The notes: generated by a model from the letters alone, not told the origin. A stretch of DNA of 63,851 nt, filler included, from Deltaproteobacteria bacterium (GCA_013151235.1; 6 parts of 6 records of this genome joined end to end with filler, not necessarily neighbours in it); one strand, 5' to 3'; shown: positions 51,948-58,770, numbered from the whole stretch's first letter. Program-made: numbers and translations.

Positions 51948-52174
51948 CACGATCTCGCCCTTTTTCCCGACCTTTCTGCGATGCTCGGCTGCGTGAAGGG
52001 GTTACTCTCCCCCTACGGGGGAGCATAGGAAAAACCCGTACTTTAATTTTCTTGCCTTCCCCGTCACTCCCCGTGTTCCCCGTGGTTCATGCCTTTGCCC
52101 TTGCCTCTGTGCCTTTGCCCCTTTGCCCCTTTGCCCCAGCCCTCATTCTTTGTCAAATAATTGATATTTTTTTC

Positions 52175-52223
52175 TTGACAACTCATTTGATATCCATTAT
52201 CTTCTCAACACAAGATATAGTAT
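52175..52223 (+). promoter_or_regulatory. sigma70-like promoter with downstream NrdR-like box
   Basis: TTGACA-17-TATCTT; ACACAAGATATAGTAT at 52208-52223 resembles acaCwAtATaTwGtgt. Confidence 0.5.
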
Positions 52224-52423
52224 TTTTATTTTGGGCAAATACCAAATAACCTGTCAACCATTGGAAAGTGACAATGAGGACAGAAACAACGAACCGGGAG
52301 GAGAAGCACCCCGGGGAGTTTTCTTCCTCAACTCTGCTCAACCACATCAGGGGCAAGATCGCAGTTCAGCAAAGCGGTACAGGCATGCAATGAACCGGTC
52401 AGTCATCTTGAAAGGAGCAGGCT

Positions 52424-53572
52424 ATGAAAACCTTTGCCATTGTAAATCAAAAAGGAGGCTGCGGAAAGACAACAACATCCATCAACCTTGCCGCCGGCCT
52501 GGCGGATCGGGGAAAGAAAGTCCTGCTCGTCGACATGGACCCTCAATCCCACGCCTCCCTGGGACTCAACATCACGGTCGGCGAACTTGATCTGGGATTA
52601 TATGATGTTCTCCTCGCCGTCGGGGAAGAGGACGGCCCACGGCTGGATGATATCGTTGCTCCAGTCGTCAAGAACCTTGACCTGGTTCCTTCGAACATTA
52701 TTCTTTCCGCTTTTGAGCAGAAAATGGCCGGTACTGCAGGCCGCGAGACCCGACTGCTTGAGGCCATCAATGCCATGGAAGGAGAGTATGACTATCTCCT
52801 CATCGATTGTCCTCCATCCGTGGGGCTTCTCTCTTTCAACGCTCTCATGGCCGTTCATCACGTCATTATCCCCATTGAGCCAAGCTTCTTTTCACTTCAC
52901 GGACTCGGCAAACAGATTGAATCAATTCGGATATTCACGGAAAAACTGAATCACTTCATTGAGATCCATACGCTCGTCACAATGTTCGATCGGCGGACCC
53001 GACTTTCCCGTGAAGTCCTGGAAGAGGTGCAAAAGCACTTCGGCAAACAGCTTTTTCAGACCGTTATCCATAACAACATCCGCCTCAAAGAGGCAGCCGG
53101 CTACGGCTCCCCCATCTGTAAATTTGATCGCCACTGTACCGGATTCCATGATTTTCAGGCCCTTGCCGAAGAAGTGTCTCTGCTCAAGGCCGTTGAGGTT
53201 CAGGTACAACCGGTGGAAACACTGGGGCCCCGGCCGGTACGCAACGGGATTCTCTTTTCCCTGGATGCACCGAACGTAAAATCCCTGAAGTTAGTGGGGG
53301 ACTTCAACAACTGGACACCGGACAAAAATTCGGAACTGGAAAAGGGAGAGGCCGGAAGGTGGGAAAAAACTCTGTCCCTGCCGCCCGGGAGATACCATTA
53401 TAAATTTATCGCCGACGGCGAGTGGCGGGAAGATTCCGGCAATCCCAACTACATCATCAACGATTTCGGCGGGATCGATTCCGTCGTGGAGGTCAAGCCG
53501 ATAGAGTTCCCCGAACTGATGCAGCAGGACCGGTCCCTGGGCATGGAAGCGGACCAGCAGGAAGCGAGTTGA
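52424..53572 (+). CDS. ParA/Soj ATPase fused to a C-terminal glycogen-binding (CBM48/AMPK1_CBM-type) domain
   Basis: Deviant Walker A NQKGGCGKTT, DMDPQ, DCPP, TMFD.RT; C-terminal FSLDAP..VGDFNNW...GRWE..L.LPPGRYHYKFIADGEW..D..NP. Confidence 0.88.
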   Translation: MKTFAIVNQKGGCGKTTTSINLAAGLADRGKKVLLVDMDPQSHASLGLNITVGELDLGLYDVLLAVGEEDGPRLDDIVAPVVKNLDLVPSNIILSAFEQKMAGTAGRETRLLEAINAMEGEYDYLLIDCPPSVGLLSFNALMAVHHVIIPIEPSFFSLHGLGKQIESIRIFTEKLNHFIEIHTLVTMFDRRTRLSREVLEEVQKHFGKQLFQTVIHNNIRLKEAAGYGSPICKFDRHCTGFHDFQALAEEVSLLKAVEVQVQPVETLGPRPVRNGILFSLDAPNVKSLKLVGDFNNWTPDKNSELEKGEAGRWEKTLSLPPGRYHYKFIADGEWREDSGNPNYIINDFGGIDSVVEVKPIEFPELMQQDRSLGMEADQQEAS

Positions 53573-53624
53573 AAGATCCTGTTCCGGAATTCTATGGCCC
53601 ACAACACATCAACGAGGGGGGTTC

Positions 53625-54491
53625 ATGAAAACGAAGAGCTTGGGACGGGGAATGGAAGAGATTTCCCATATCTTTCTCTCTTCGGAACCGGCGACAGTTT
53701 CACGTAAAAAATCACAGGAAACCCGAAAGATCGAAAAGCCGGCCGCTGACAATTCCCTCCGAATGACCCCGTCGATCGGAATCACCGGAAGCACCGATCG
53801 ATGGATCGGGACCTTTGCCCTCGTCAACATTTCCATTGAACTCGCCCGGCAGGGATACCGGGTCCTGGTGATCGACGAGGACCCCGGCCCCCTCAATGTA
53901 ATGCGCTCCATGGGATTGATCGATGTAGAAAACCCCGGCGAAATGATTCTGCACAATGCCCCCATGGGAGTACGCATCGCCTACCGAACCCCTTTCCTCA
54001 ACGACCTGGCGCTCTATAGTCGGCTTACCCGGGACGAAAAGAACTTTTCCTGGCCGGAACGTTACCGGCGGTTTGATTTTATCCTGTCCCATCTCCCGCA
54101 ACGAAATTACGAAGATTTCGGTCCTTTCCTGCGCCGGACCTCTCTTTGTATCGCGATCGGTTCCACGGAACCCGAGGGAATGCTTCAAACCTATGCCGCA
54201 ATTAAGGGCCTGAACCAGGCGGCACGGCAGATGAACTTTGGCCTCATCGTCTATGACTCGGTCGGCGTCATTCCCCCCGAAGAGGCATTTATAAAGATGG
54301 CCCGGAATGTTCGCAGGTTTCTTCACAAGGATCTCATAAGCTATTCCTTTATCCGGGACGACGCGGAAATTGCGGAATCGATGGAAACCGGTATGCCTCT
54401 CTCCCTGCAATCTCCGTCCTCCGAAGTGCGCCGTCAGTTATTCAGCATTGCCGGACTGATCATCGACGACTATGACAAGAAAACATCATGA
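53625..54491 (+). CDS. degenerate FlhG/MinD-like protein with N-terminal ParB-like LGRG peptide
   Basis: SLGRGMEEI; P-loop region GITGSTDRWIGT lacks KGGxGK; ELARQGYRVLVIDED, TEPE..QTYAAIK, RFL......I.DD. Confidence 0.7.
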   Translation: MKTKSLGRGMEEISHIFLSSEPATVSRKKSQETRKIEKPAADNSLRMTPSIGITGSTDRWIGTFALVNISIELARQGYRVLVIDEDPGPLNVMRSMGLIDVENPGEMILHNAPMGVRIAYRTPFLNDLALYSRLTRDEKNFSWPERYRRFDFILSHLPQRNYEDFGPFLRRTSLCIAIGSTEPEGMLQTYAAIKGLNQAARQMNFGLIVYDSVGVIPPEEAFIKMARNVRRFLHKDLISYSFIRDDAEIAESMETGMPLSLQSPSSEVRRQLFSIAGLIIDDYDKKTS

Positions 54492-55054
54492 CCTTCAGAA
54501 CCGTACCGTTGCAGAACAAAAAGAAATTAATCGAGCTGATTCGCACTTCCAGTTCTCTGCTGGAAGAAGGGATGGAAATTATTGACAGCGATATCGGCTC
54601 GGAAGAAATTCCCCTGATCGACCTGGTCGCCCGAAGGAGGAGCGGTGAGGCGCTCCTGATCCATACCGGAGTTACCGCGGATGAAAAAGCATTTCTCCAC
54701 GCCGCCGCCCAATCGGCATGGTTTCAGTCAAATCATACGCTCCTGAGAAGAATCTATCCCGAGTTGACGCTGGACAATCAGGTTCCCCCAAGGGCTGCCC
54801 TGATCTACCCGGAATTTCCTCATCTGATGAAGAGATTTGTCAGGGCAGCCCCCCCCTCCTTTGCTCCCATGCTTTTCCGGTACCGCTGTCTCGTCTCGGA
54901 GGATACACAATTTCTTTATCTGGAGCGGTTCGACAAACCTCGGGAGCAGATGCGCCTTTCCGAGGAGGACGCTTCGCTCCCCCCCTTTCGAACCGGAATC
55001 GCGGGAAAGGACGTGATGCTCAGCCCTGAAGAGAGGGAGGCATTCTTCTCCTGA
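54488..55054 (+). CDS. hypothetical protein, NucS-C/PD-(D/E)XK-like fold
   Basis: LEEGMEIID....IDLVA...G.ALLIH; ATGA overlap with the upstream gene. Confidence 0.6.
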   Translation: MTFRTVPLQNKKKLIELIRTSSSLLEEGMEIIDSDIGSEEIPLIDLVARRRSGEALLIHTGVTADEKAFLHAAAQSAWFQSNHTLLRRIYPELTLDNQVPPRAALIYPEFPHLMKRFVRAAPPSFAPMLFRYRCLVSEDTQFLYLERFDKPREQMRLSEEDASLPPFRTGIAGKDVMLSPEEREAFFS

Positions 55055-55100
55055 ACAGCCACCCGACCCCATGGATGATGAACATCACAAGACCGTCTTC

Positions 55101-55143
55101 AAAAAAAATCCCCCCGGTGGCAAAAAGCACCGGGGGGATTTTT
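55101..55143. terminator. bidirectional intrinsic terminator
   Basis: AAAATCCCCCCGGTG/CACCGGGGGGATTTT between convergent genes. Confidence 0.85.
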
Positions 55144-55166
55144 CGTATCTCTCGGAGGGGCTGGGC

Positions 55167-56822
<1,656 letters not shown>

Positions 56823-57408: not shown

Positions 57409-58770
57409 ATGCAACTCAAGTCGAATCTGAAACTCAAATATTGTCCCATGCTGGACAGTTTTATCAAGATCCGTGAGTTTTCCCAGGAGGAAATCGACAT
57501 CTTTTCCAACCATACAGACATCCGGGATAAGCGATCTTATCAGGACCTGGTCATCCGGGAGACCATACCGGATTTCAATGAAAAAATCCTGAAACTGATC
57601 CACAACGACGGAGAGATCGGCTTCGACATGGAAGGAGCAATTGATGAACTCTACCGGATGTGCATCAAGGTCAACCCCGCCCTGAATATCTATAATATCA
57701 GCATTCCCGTACAGGAAGGGGGGACCCCTCAGCTCCACCTGCAGCCGGGAAGGAAGCGGGACGTAAGAAACCGGATCCAGGAGATTCGGGGGTTGGAAGA
57801 AACGTTAAAACGGCGAATCATCGGACAGGATGAAGCCATTCGTCGAATCGTTCAATCCATTCAGAGTGCGAAGATCGGAATCAAGGACCCCCACCGGCCT
57901 GTCGGCTGTTTTATCTTCGCCGGACAGACGGGGGTAGGTAAGACCGAACTGGCCAAGGCCGTCGCGGAGTGTCTCGTGGGGAGCGAAAAGGAGATGATTC
58001 GCGTCGACTGCTCCGAGTTCTCGCAACCCCATGAATACGCGAAGTTGATCGGGGCACCTCCGGGGTACGTCGGGTATGAAGATGGAGGCAGCCTGACCAC
58101 ACCACTCCTGAAGAATCCCGAAAACGTCGTCCTCTTCGATGAAATTGAGAAGGCCAACAGCAAGCTTCACAACCTGCTGCTCCAGATCATGGACGAAGGG
58201 GACCTCACCGACAACAAAGGAAGGAAGATCCCTTTTCATGATGCCGTGGTAATTCTGACGACGAATGTCGGTGTCGAAGGGTTGGACGCGATGAAAAACG
58301 CCGTCGGTTTTACAAAGGAAGAACAGCCCGGACGGAAGATCGTCGAACGGGAAACCCTGAAGGCACTGGAGAAGACCTTCCGGCCGGAATTTCTCAACCG
58401 CATCGATGAAATCATCTGTTTTCGTCCACTCGGGACCGAAAGTATCCGCAAGATCGTCAGGCTCTTGTTGTCCCGTCTGAAGAAAAATCTTTCGCAAATG
58501 AAAATTTCCATCCGTTTCACACAGGGAGTCATCGACTTCATCAGCCGGGAAGGGATGGATCCGCGCTACGGTGCCCGTCCGTTACAGCGGGCAATCAAAC
58601 AATATATTGAAGTCCCCCTGACGGAACGGATCCTCCATGCAAAAGAGGAATTCCCCATGAAGGTCGTAGCAAGGATTTCAGGCCGCCGGATTGTTTTTGT
58701 GGCGGATCGAACTCTCCCGGCAAACCGTGGGAACCATCGGATTCAGACCCTCTACCAGGAGACGGGATGA
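57409..58770 (+). CDS. Clp/Hsp100-type ATPase with a single D2 module and an unknown N-terminal domain
   Basis: IIGQDEAI, GQTGVGKT, KLIGAPPGYVGY, FDEIEKA, VGF loop, FRPEFLNRID, YGARPL. Confidence 0.85.
   Translation: MQLKSNLKLKYCPMLDSFIKIREFSQEEIDIFSNHTDIRDKRSYQDLVIRETIPDFNEKILKLIHNDGEIGFDMEGAIDELYRMCIKVNPALNIYNISIPVQEGGTPQLHLQPGRKRDVRNRIQEIRGLEETLKRRIIGQDEAIRRIVQSIQSAKIGIKDPHRPVGCFIFAGQTGVGKTELAKAVAECLVGSEKEMIRVDCSEFSQPHEYAKLIGAPPGYVGYEDGGSLTTPLLKNPENVVLFDEIEKANSKLHNLLLQIMDEGDLTDNKGRKIPFHDAVVILTTNVGVEGLDAMKNAVGFTKEEQPGRKIVERETLKALEKTFRPEFLNRIDEIICFRPLGTESIRKIVRLLLSRLKKNLSQMKISIRFTQGVIDFISREGMDPRYGARPLQRAIKQYIEVPLTERILHAKEEFPMKVVARISGRRIVFVADRTLPANRGNHRIQTLYQETG

Follow-up and report, generated by a model that had tools for sequence, protein, structure and literature searches.

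Positions 52424-55054 of the stretch of DNA analysed here (hereafter the window: 63,851 nucleotides from the Deltaproteobacteria bacterium assembly GCA_013151235.1, six records joined end to end with filler) hold three co-directional genes, the first of which encodes a ParA-type ATPase fused to a predicted carbohydrate-binding module (CBM) of the CBM48/AMPK-beta family. We refer to this fusion as ParA-CBM. A first-pass annotation, made from the sequence alone, had read the three genes as a unit with its own promoter-like site and terminator and had proposed that it positions glycogen granules. The open reading frames (ORFs) and the domains that we assign to them are as follows.

52424-53572, + strand: gene 1, ORF of 382 amino acids
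52424-53179, + strand: ParA/Soj ATPase domain of gene 1 (residues 1-252; Pfam AAA_31)
53180-53245, + strand: variable linker of gene 1 (residues 253-274; 0 of 22 columns conserved at >=95%)
53246-53494, + strand: predicted CBM48/AMPK-beta glycogen-binding module of gene 1 (residues 275-357; Pfam)
53495-53572, + strand: acidic C-terminal tail of gene 1 and stop codon (columns gapped in 62-93% of homologues)
53625-54491, + strand: gene 2, ORF of 288 amino acids
53625-53684, + strand: N-terminal ParB-like peptide of gene 2, MKTKSLGRGMEEISHIFLSS (hardly varying across 19 of 20 members of its family)
53757-54491, + strand: FlhG/MinD-fold domain of gene 2 lacking Walker A lysines, a predicted pseudo-ATPase (AlphaFold/Foldseek)
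54488-55054, + strand: gene 3, ORF of 188 amino acids, overlapping gene 2 by 4 nucleotides
54488-55054, + strand: predicted NucS/EndoMS-like PD-(D/E)xK fold of gene 3, without the (D/E)xK (AlphaFold and Foldseek)

The motifs that had marked gene 1 as an intact ParA/Soj protein fused to a CBM48/AMPK-beta module are all present, and both parts score above their Pfam cut-offs. AAA_31 matches residues 1-181 (E = 6.1e-51; 173 bits against a cut-off of 27), and the domain contains the deviant Walker A motif NQKGGCGKTT (8-17), DCPP (128-131) and FDRRTRL (188-194). The nearest structures are chromosomal ParA/Soj proteins, the best solved relative being the ParA chain of 8RAY (E = 4.5e-51). Not one of 119 full-length members of the gene 1 family departs from the catalytic Walker A (8-17), Walker A' (D37/D39) and Walker B (D128) motifs, and the ATPase is predicted to be intact and should be active. 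The cysteine of KGGCGKT (residue 13, 52460-52462) is likewise invariant in all 119, with valine at the aligned position of 8RAY and 1WCV; it is a signature of the ParA-CBM family, possibly redox-related.

Following the linker, AMPK1_CBM matches residues 287-359 (E = 3.8e-11; 43.5 bits against a cut-off of 26.8) and CBM_48 matches residues 267-334 (28.2 bits against 22.4). The module contains VGDFNNW (291-297), GRW (311-313) and LPPGRYHYKF..DGEW (319-334), and this part of gene 1 aligns with the CBM of AMPK beta-1 (1Z0M, E = 2.3e-8). The fusion, on whose conservation the granule proposal had depended, is widespread: all of the best 120 homologues of gene 1 carry the CBM, and F294, W297, W313, L319, G322, Y326, W334, D337, G349 and S353 are invariant among them. 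The sugar-binding residues of AMPK beta-1 are W100, K126, W133, L146 and N150; in the 1Z0M alignment W297, K327, W334, F348 and D352 of gene 1 fall on these positions. Across the 120 homologues both tryptophans are unchanged throughout, 69% retain K327, and asparagine occupies position 352 in 82%, so that the predicted sugar-binding residues of the module are largely conserved. Conservation at >=95% is found in 12 of 83 CBM columns, the predicted sugar-binding tryptophans among them. With a mean pairwise identity of 45%, compared with 53% for the ParA domain, the CBM diverges slightly faster than its neighbour but is not hypervariable.

The first-pass annotation had also described gene 2 as a pseudo-FlhG that starts with an LGRG peptide resembling ParB, a description borne out by both sequence and predicted structure. 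Gene 2 begins MKTKSLGRGMEEISHIFLS, and its peptide LGRGLEEISHVFLS is nearly invariant across the gene 2 family (consensus MKGKRLGRGLEEISHVFLSSE; pattern LGRGLE[DE][VI]SH.FLS). Residues 1-44 are disordered in the AlphaFold model (pLDDT < 50). The canonical ParB of related genomes starts MSRK[AV]LGKGLSALIPD (MSRKALGKGLSALIPD), and the two N-termini have [RK]K.LG[RK]GL..[LI] in common. According to PMC12462528, it is at the ParA dimer interface that the ParB motif binds; together with DNA it stimulates the ATPase, the more strongly when two peptides are displayed as a pair. The likeness ends with the peptide: neither gene 2 nor gene 3 matches a ParBc or helix-turn-helix (HTH) family, and since no ParB/Srx CTPase domain or parS-binding HTH was matched, gene 2 is not a ParB.

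The remainder of gene 2 resembles the MinD/FlhG branch of the ParA superfamily. Its match to the Pfam family CbiA falls marginally under the cut-off (25.1 against 25.4 bits), and the top Foldseek match of the AlphaFold model (mean pLDDT 76.9) is FlhG, 4RZ2 (E = 2.6e-13, TM 0.64/0.71), followed by MinD and FleN. FleN-FleQ complexes are among the best structural matches. The place of the Walker A motif reads GSTDRWIGT, and the family has no conserved lysine there.

Gene 3 has no Pfam match. That it is NucS-like holds at the level of the fold, the best Foldseek matches of its AlphaFold model (pLDDT 79.3) being EndoMS/NucS structures, 5GKE (E = 3.4e-5) and 2VLD (5.6e-5). At the catalytic (D/E)xK site, gene 3 reads LLIHTG. 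A word-seeded search with gene 3 returned only 16 relatives, and the family became visible through an exhaustive profile search (854 representatives at E <= 0.001, 328 at E <= 1e-10), which also retrieves proteins carrying a D...ExK motif. [DE]xK stands at the catalytic place in 0 of 53 peptide-bearing partners, compared with 22 of 97 other representatives of the family. These residues point to a nuclease-dead NucS-fold domain, which keeps a conserved C-terminal tail (LPPFRTG...EEREAFLS in the family alignment). A predicted complex of the gene 2 and gene 3 products scored 0.29, the mark being 0.32. Four further members of the gene 3 family (P0164, P0178, P0255 and P0262, about 300-320 amino acids) have the NucS-like domain at 123-304 and an N-terminal domain that looks PilZ-like by eye; the latter would be another input module on the same dead-nuclease scaffold.

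How the peptide, the pseudo-ParA and the dead nuclease are packaged differs between lineages. Among the best 150 members of the gene 3 family, 49 have L[GAP]RGLE[DEQ][VI]SHLFLS as an N-terminal peptide of their own and a further 3 are truncated within it, which argues that in most lineages the peptide is fused directly to the predicted dead nuclease. In 79 of 80 metagenome loci of this fused partner, all relatives of one query (53-100% identity) and hence not independent, the ParA-CBM gene ends no more than about 250 nucleotides upstream on the same strand; in the one exception, upstream DNA extends for just 102 nucleotides. Planctomycetota display a third arrangement. There, a protein of 430-545 amino acids follows ParA-CBM in 10 of 15 loci. 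One of these proteins (L190) joins the peptide, the pseudo-ParA and the NucS-like domain, with hidden Markov model (HMM) hits to all three parts, and the domains and a peptide variant (..LADLFLTG) of the other nine were recognised mainly by eye, pseudo-ParA HMM hits being obtained in two of them. In L174, L175 and L007 the peptide sits on the pseudo-ParA, as in the window.

The partner module thus accompanies ParA-CBM in three phylum-level groups, nearly always just downstream. Because the same parts are spread over two or three genes in some phyla and united in a single gene in others, we regard their distribution as strong evidence that the peptide, the pseudo-ParA and the dead nuclease work together with ParA-CBM. 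Two loci were seen in passing. In L089 (G011:C116), a MerR-like HTH gene (by eye; 994-1458) lies directly upstream of a three-gene set whose ParA-CBM is 38% identical to gene 1; the family model missed the gene 3-like ORF of this locus, which was recognised by eye only. L181 (G211:C3, 1100-3185) is a second ParA-CBM copy of one genome in the sample of the G005 phylum, without a peptide-bearing partner, and is directly followed by a ROK-family sugar kinase (closest model fructokinase, under cut-off).

ParA-CBM clusters in the Atlas come from Thermodesulfobacteriota, Omnitrophota, Acidobacteriota and Planctomycetota, and the closest relatives of the window that bear a name are recorded as metagenome-assembled genomes of Nitrospirota. 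The phylum-level group of these relatives comprises 13 genomes, 8 of which encode the full fusion and one more a copy cut by a contig end. Plain Soj-type ParA genes, one or two per genome, are present throughout the group as well, and a canonical ParB adjoins one plain ParA in 4 of 4 relatives' genomes tested. In the window, where the absence of ParB and parS had been noted early on, a tblastn search with the ParB of a relative found no ParB, gene 1 is the sole ParA, and a parS-type consensus pattern gave a single site with 3 mismatches, which is the level expected by chance.

The gene order, a check that the first-pass annotation had proposed, turned out to be conserved. Wherever the DNA continues (6 of 6 relatives, down to 67% identity in gene 1), gene 1, gene 2 and gene 3 are followed by groEL, groES and a gene for a Clp-like AAA protein. 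Across these relatives, identity is 83-96% for GroEL (88-96% over full-length matches), 67-87% for gene 1, 45-77% for gene 2 and 44-79% for gene 3. The Clp-like AAA+ protein that adjoins groESL in the window (57409-58770, 453 amino acids) is single-ringed, consisting of AAA_2 and ClpB_D2-small without an N-terminal or first ATPase domain, and its gene is kept beside groESL in all five relatives with sufficiently long DNA. The neighbours of 35 further ParA-CBM loci, tallied as the 25 most frequent families of 92 and of 77 neighbour ORFs, are housekeeping, biosynthetic or cell-envelope genes (AroB, LysA, PurE, Maf, ClpX, RNase E/G, type IV pilus ATPases).

The regulatory elements that flank the genes are as follows.

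52152-52174, + strand: conserved upstream element GTCAAATAATTGATATTTTTTTC (columns invariant or nearly so in an alignment of the window and 6 related loci)
52175-52203, + strand: sigma-70-like promoter, TTGACA-17 nucleotides-TATCTT (consensus scan and conservation)
52204-52423, + strand: leader of about 220 nucleotides with conserved blocks ACACAAGATATAGT and ATACAAAATA (7 sequences)
52412-52417, + strand: ribosome-binding site AAGGAG, within the leader
about 55104-55143, both strands: hairpin of a bidirectional intrinsic terminator, in the gap that separates gene 3 from the convergent groEL

Both the promoter-like site and the terminator that had been ascribed to the three genes are upheld, the former by its conservation and the latter by its stem. 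On its own, the promoter consensus scan did not rise above chance (4 sites compared with 2.8 +/- 2.0 in shuffled sequence). The -35 hexamer does not vary, and its -10 counterpart reads TATNNT, in 7 of 7 sequences (the window and the 6 related loci); the element GTCAAATAATTGATATTTTTT and the promoter are kept in 6 of 6 related loci, the remaining spacer having diverged. The upstream element abuts the 5' side of the -35 hexamer and may serve either as an UP element or as the site of a regulator. The leader, for which Rfam yields nothing at E <= 1, might act in regulation, as an RNA element or as an operator region. At the other end, a perfect stem of 15-16 base pairs is bordered by an A-run and a U-run (fold of 55040-55175: -49.5 kcal/mol, z = -3.65); the terminator consensus scan was not above chance and missed this hairpin. 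At 52085-52140, just 5' of the conserved promoter element, CCTTTGCC(C)-type direct repeats form a short array.

Further upstream, the window departs from its relatives. All four annotated relatives encode, directly upstream of gene 1, a histidine kinase of the HAMP-PAS type together with an NtrC-type regulator (Response_reg-Sigma54_activat-HTH_8), whereas the window has insertion-sequence remnants and Rnf genes and no such pair. Between 50500 and 52100 we see short ORFs only, adjoining RnfA/RnfB, with a weak match to DUF6431 (24 bits, under the cut-off) and a transposase-like fragment recognised by eye, at the place where the relatives carry the kinase and the sigma-54 activator. This suggests that an insertion or rearrangement displaced or removed the two-component pair. 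A sigma-54 promoter was sought before gene 1 with a consensus pattern, and none was found. The sole mismatch-free match to that consensus in the window is TGGCACATCCCTTGCA, on the - strand at 2128-2143.

Does ParA-CBM keep company with glycogen metabolism? The first-pass annotation had named co-occurrence with glgABC as a check, and it holds for some markers and not for others. In the 5 carrier genomes first tested, glgA and glgC are above cut-off in all 5, but a GH13 GlgB in only 1. In the phylum of G005 (record labelled Gemmatimonadaceae; the tally includes G070, flagged as unpublished), glgA is present in 9 of 9 carriers compared with 178 of 301 genomes overall, for which the naive probability is about 0.01, the carriers falling in few lineages. 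Planctomycetota do not fit the expectation at first sight, as no carrier there has a GlgA of the TIGR02095 type, a point to which we return below. We looked at five Planctomycetota carriers individually. Even at E <= 1e-25 no TIGR02095-like gene turns up in them, each encodes members of the GH57 and alpha-glucan phosphorylase families, 3 of the 5 encode a GT3 glycogen synthase (E = 1e-170 to 1e-217), and the other 2 have a GT5 gene beside GH57. We explain the failure of TIGR02095 by these other synthase types, the marker being too narrow (5 of 15 carriers checked), and the fusion may mark a Planctomycetota clade with a different glycogen pathway. Carriers without glycogen synthesis, which had been named at the outset as evidence that would count against a glycogen role, were not found: a glycogen synthase of some type is encoded in 19 of 19 carrier genomes tested, which include 5 of the 15 Planctomycetota carriers. 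On occasion the link is physical. Above the respective NCBIfam cut-offs, GlgC is the divergent immediate neighbour of ParA-CBM in one locus (L091) and GlgB in two (L110 and L116, the L116 copy having an in-frame stop). GH57 adjacency was not seen in 126 ParA-CBM loci.

The architecture itself is not new. A preprint of 22 Oct 2026, 'Widespread Recruitment of ParA-like NTPases into Prokaryotic Immunity' (bioRxiv 10.64898/2026.10.19.760177), describes ParA-CBM systems computationally as ParA fused to a C-terminal AMPK1_CBM, occurring sporadically in several phyla, with a variant that adds an inactive ParA and an inactive restriction endonuclease; it cites rapid divergence of the CBM and proposes carbohydrate sensing in immunity. 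The gene set of this variant 2 is identical to that of the window, and the sporadic spread across phyla matches ours. Other aspects differ. The terms 'ParB-like', 'arginine finger' and 'N-terminal peptide' occur 0 times each in the main text of the preprint, whereas the window partner carries such a peptide; the preprint presents the extra genes as an optional extension, whereas in our samples a peptide-bearing partner is the usual companion; and the alignment here does not show a rapidly diverging CBM. What we add is the likeness of the peptide to ParB, the forms of the partner across phyla, the conservation of CBM residues, the groESL synteny and the links to glycogen genes. The earlier remark that no ParA system for glycogen has been described stands in so far as our literature search found no ParA system acting on glycogen, but the architecture has been described, in the preprint, with an immune role proposed for it.

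Several better-understood systems offer points of comparison. In chromosomal ParABS, as described for Myxococcus xanthus ParA-ParB (8RAY, PMC12462528), the ATPase is of the same Soj type as gene 1, and the partner carries the unstructured [RK]K.LG[RK]GL motif that gene 2 has in common with ParB. Unlike ParABS, the window module has a partner without the ParB HTH/CTPase domain, has no parS and has a ligand-binding module on its ParA, and the relatives hold a separate canonical parAB pair. The module shares its logic with McdA-McdB, which positions carboxysomes, and with other cargo-positioning ParA/MinD systems: a ParA-family ATPase and a fast-evolving, ATPase-stimulating partner act on a cytoplasmic body other than DNA. 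McdAB has its adaptor located on the cargo and its ATPase on the nucleoid. In the window, by contrast, the ATPase itself bears the predicted cargo-binding domain, and the pseudo-FlhG and dead NucS folds are unrelated to McdB; McdA is a weak sequence relative of gene 1 (6NON/6NOO, E about 5e-12). FlhG/FleN, MinD-like proteins that regulate flagellar number, come closest to the model of gene 2. Without the Walker A lysines, however, gene 2 cannot work as an ATPase switch; it also bears the ParB-like peptide, and flagellar genes are absent from its surroundings. Finally, the CBM belongs to the same Pfam family as the glycogen-binding domain of AMPK beta, with tryptophan and lysine positions that align with the AMPK beta-1 CBM; here, however, the predicted glycogen-binding module sits on a bacterial ParA rather than on a kinase scaffold or a GH13 enzyme.

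We suggest, at somewhat less than an even chance, that ParA-CBM and its partner form a chromosomal housekeeping module that tethers or positions glycogen through cycling of the ParA. In this scenario, the ligand and cargo would be intracellular alpha-glucan, that is, glycogen. The CBM is attached to an intact ParA by a flexible linker, and the ATP-bound ParA dimer would display two CBMs and so bind glycogen particles multivalently. Through its ParA face the same dimer would grip the nucleoid, or other ParA dimers, leaving the glycogen tethered and spaced. A complex of the gene 2 and gene 3 products would then bring paired peptides to the dimer interface in the fashion of ParB, triggering ATP hydrolysis and release, and repeated cycles of binding and release might distribute glycogen along the cell and between daughters. 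In contrast to known ParA systems, the cargo adaptor would be built into the ATPase, and the activator would be a separate complex, anchored perhaps on DNA, glycogen or ParA. That granules are positioned and inherited on the nucleoid in particular is something we purely infer. We favour a housekeeping role involving alpha-glucan because of the conserved predicted sugar-binding residues, the peptide that mimics ParB, the groESL synteny, the housekeeping neighbours, the occasional adjacency of GlgC or GlgB, the presence of a synthase in every tested carrier, and the lack of any effector or defence-island context.

A number of observations weigh against this scenario. First, a ratchet needs its activator on the cargo, and here it is the ATPase itself that binds the cargo. 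Second, the ParA surface that would grip the nucleoid is altered in places. Nonspecific DNA binding involves a basic patch (K199/K227/K230/K247 in HpSoj, R189/R218 in BsSoj; PMC6393308), which the 119 members of the gene 1 family retain only in part: 106 of 119 have a basic residue at the V-[KR]-L position, but the I-P-[KR]-[SN] loop is altered to I-[HNR]-x-N, and the equivalent of BsSoj R189 is variable. Further conserved basic residues of the family are R191, R/K193, K222 and R/K236. Third, the fusion is sporadic, being found in 9 of 301 genomes of the G005 phylum and in 15 of 301 of Planctomycetota, so that most glycogen-making bacteria manage without it. Fourth, genes 2 and 3 evolve fast (44-79% identity, compared with 83-96% for GroEL), and no partner was seen at 5 of 15 Planctomycetota loci or beside 2 further ParA-CBM copies. 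Fifth, as to the ties to glycogen genes, adjacent ones occur in only 3 of 126 loci, many of which are redundant; the co-occurrence counts are raw, with carriers from few lineages and kinship ignored; and classical GlgA (TIGR02095) is found in 0 of 15 Planctomycetota carriers compared with 201 of 301 sampled genomes. Owing to the sporadic spread, the fast genes 2 and 3, the incomplete DNA-binding patch and the odd topology, we keep two other explanations alive.

One of them, which we think unlikely, is that the module reports on glycogen rather than moving it. Binding to glycogen would sequester or release the ParA dimer, and ParA together with the FleN/FlhG-like pseudo-ATPase would act on a regulator, which by analogy could be an NtrC-type sigma-54 activator (as FleN acts on FleQ) or DnaA (as for Soj). 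In this way transcription or the cell cycle would respond to the carbon reserve, an idea reminiscent of AMPK beta, whose type of CBM the module shares. That FlhG and FleN, including FleN-FleQ complexes, are the best structural matches of gene 2 is in line with such a role, as is the histidine kinase and sigma-54 activator pair directly upstream in all four annotated relatives, and a sporadic distribution suits a regulatory add-on. Yet the pair is missing from the window, with its insertion-sequence remnants and Rnf genes, and was not seen beside the module in other phyla; no sigma-54 promoter was found before gene 1; and a ParB-like peptide indicates that the ATPase cycles as it does in positioning systems.

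The other, to which we give slightly less weight again, is the immune sensor of the preprint (10.64898/2026.10.19.760177, section 29). Here the CBM would detect a carbohydrate signal of infection (glycosylated virion proteins, fragments of cell wall or capsule, or the loss of a polysaccharide), upon which multimerisation of ParA would limit the infection, the inactive ParA and inactive restriction endonuclease adding a further sensing capacity, for example for DNA. Sporadic occurrence (the 9 and 15 of 301 genomes above) is compatible with this idea, and genes 2 and 3 evolve far faster than gene 1 or GroEL, which the preprint reads as a signature of conflict. One locus offers a defence-like context, the sole one seen: in a Phycisphaerales genome (L198, G316:C165, 2089-5866), downstream of ParA-CBM come a protein that contains an SPPY motif, DNA-methylase-like by eye, and, on the opposite strand, an 840-amino-acid protein.

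Other observations speak against a defence role. There is no effector, both extra proteins being predicted to be catalytically dead. No family in PADLOC-DB 2.0 matches gene 2, gene 3 or the fused partner, and gene 1 is matched at the level of the P-loop only (PDC-M28B, E = 7.8e-7, residues 4-42). The CBM, with its 12 of 83 columns conserved at >=95% and an identity of 45% against 53%, is not fast-evolving. It is also essentially absent from the plasmid and phage collections (2 weak matches in 72,556 plasmid records, 1 in 50,697 phage records). The groESL synteny is stable in 6 of 6 relatives, the most frequent neighbour families elsewhere are housekeeping genes, and GlgC or GlgB adjoins ParA-CBM in 3 loci. 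Finally, none of the three proteins shows any hint of export, so that the ligand must be cytoplasmic.

Ordinary DNA partition, with the dead-nuclease protein as the centromere binder of a type Ib-like ParA system and the CBM incidental, is very improbable: the layout of the partner does recall small ParB/ParG-type adaptors, in which a ParA-stimulating N-terminal peptide precedes a DNA-binding fold, but canonical parA-parB pairs lie elsewhere in all five genomes of relatives tested, the module is chromosomal with conserved synteny, the plasmid records yield only the 2 weak CBM matches, no repeats or parS-like sites were seen, and selection would not maintain the predicted sugar-binding residues of an incidental CBM.

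What would the tethering of glycogen by a cycling ParA-CBM mean? Taken to its conclusion, it would make this module the first dedicated bacterial machine for organising glycogen, a ParA with a built-in adaptor that bridges glycogen to the nucleoid and is recycled by a ParB-mimicking peptide that the pseudo-ATPase and dead nuclease present as a complex: a ratchet inverted relative to all known ParA systems, with the ATPase on the cargo side. We consider this full version doubtful, if possible. To our knowledge, how bacteria place and inherit their storage polymers is largely unexplained. ParA/MinD ATPases are a general solution to problems of this kind, positioning DNA, carboxysomes, chemoreceptor arrays and division sites. 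The immune reading, were it true, would be of interest in its own right, as a defence system whose sole visible effector is the polymerisation of ParA; the glycogen and immune readings are both unusual, and they make opposite predictions. If glycogen is indeed the cargo, carbon stores would be spaced along the cell and divided between daughters, and a glycogen-binding ParA would extend the positioning principle to a metabolic reserve, in a simple system in which glycogen binding by the CBM, activation of the ATPase by a 20-residue peptide and the scaffold roles of a dead nuclease and a dead ATPase are steps that could each be assayed in vitro.

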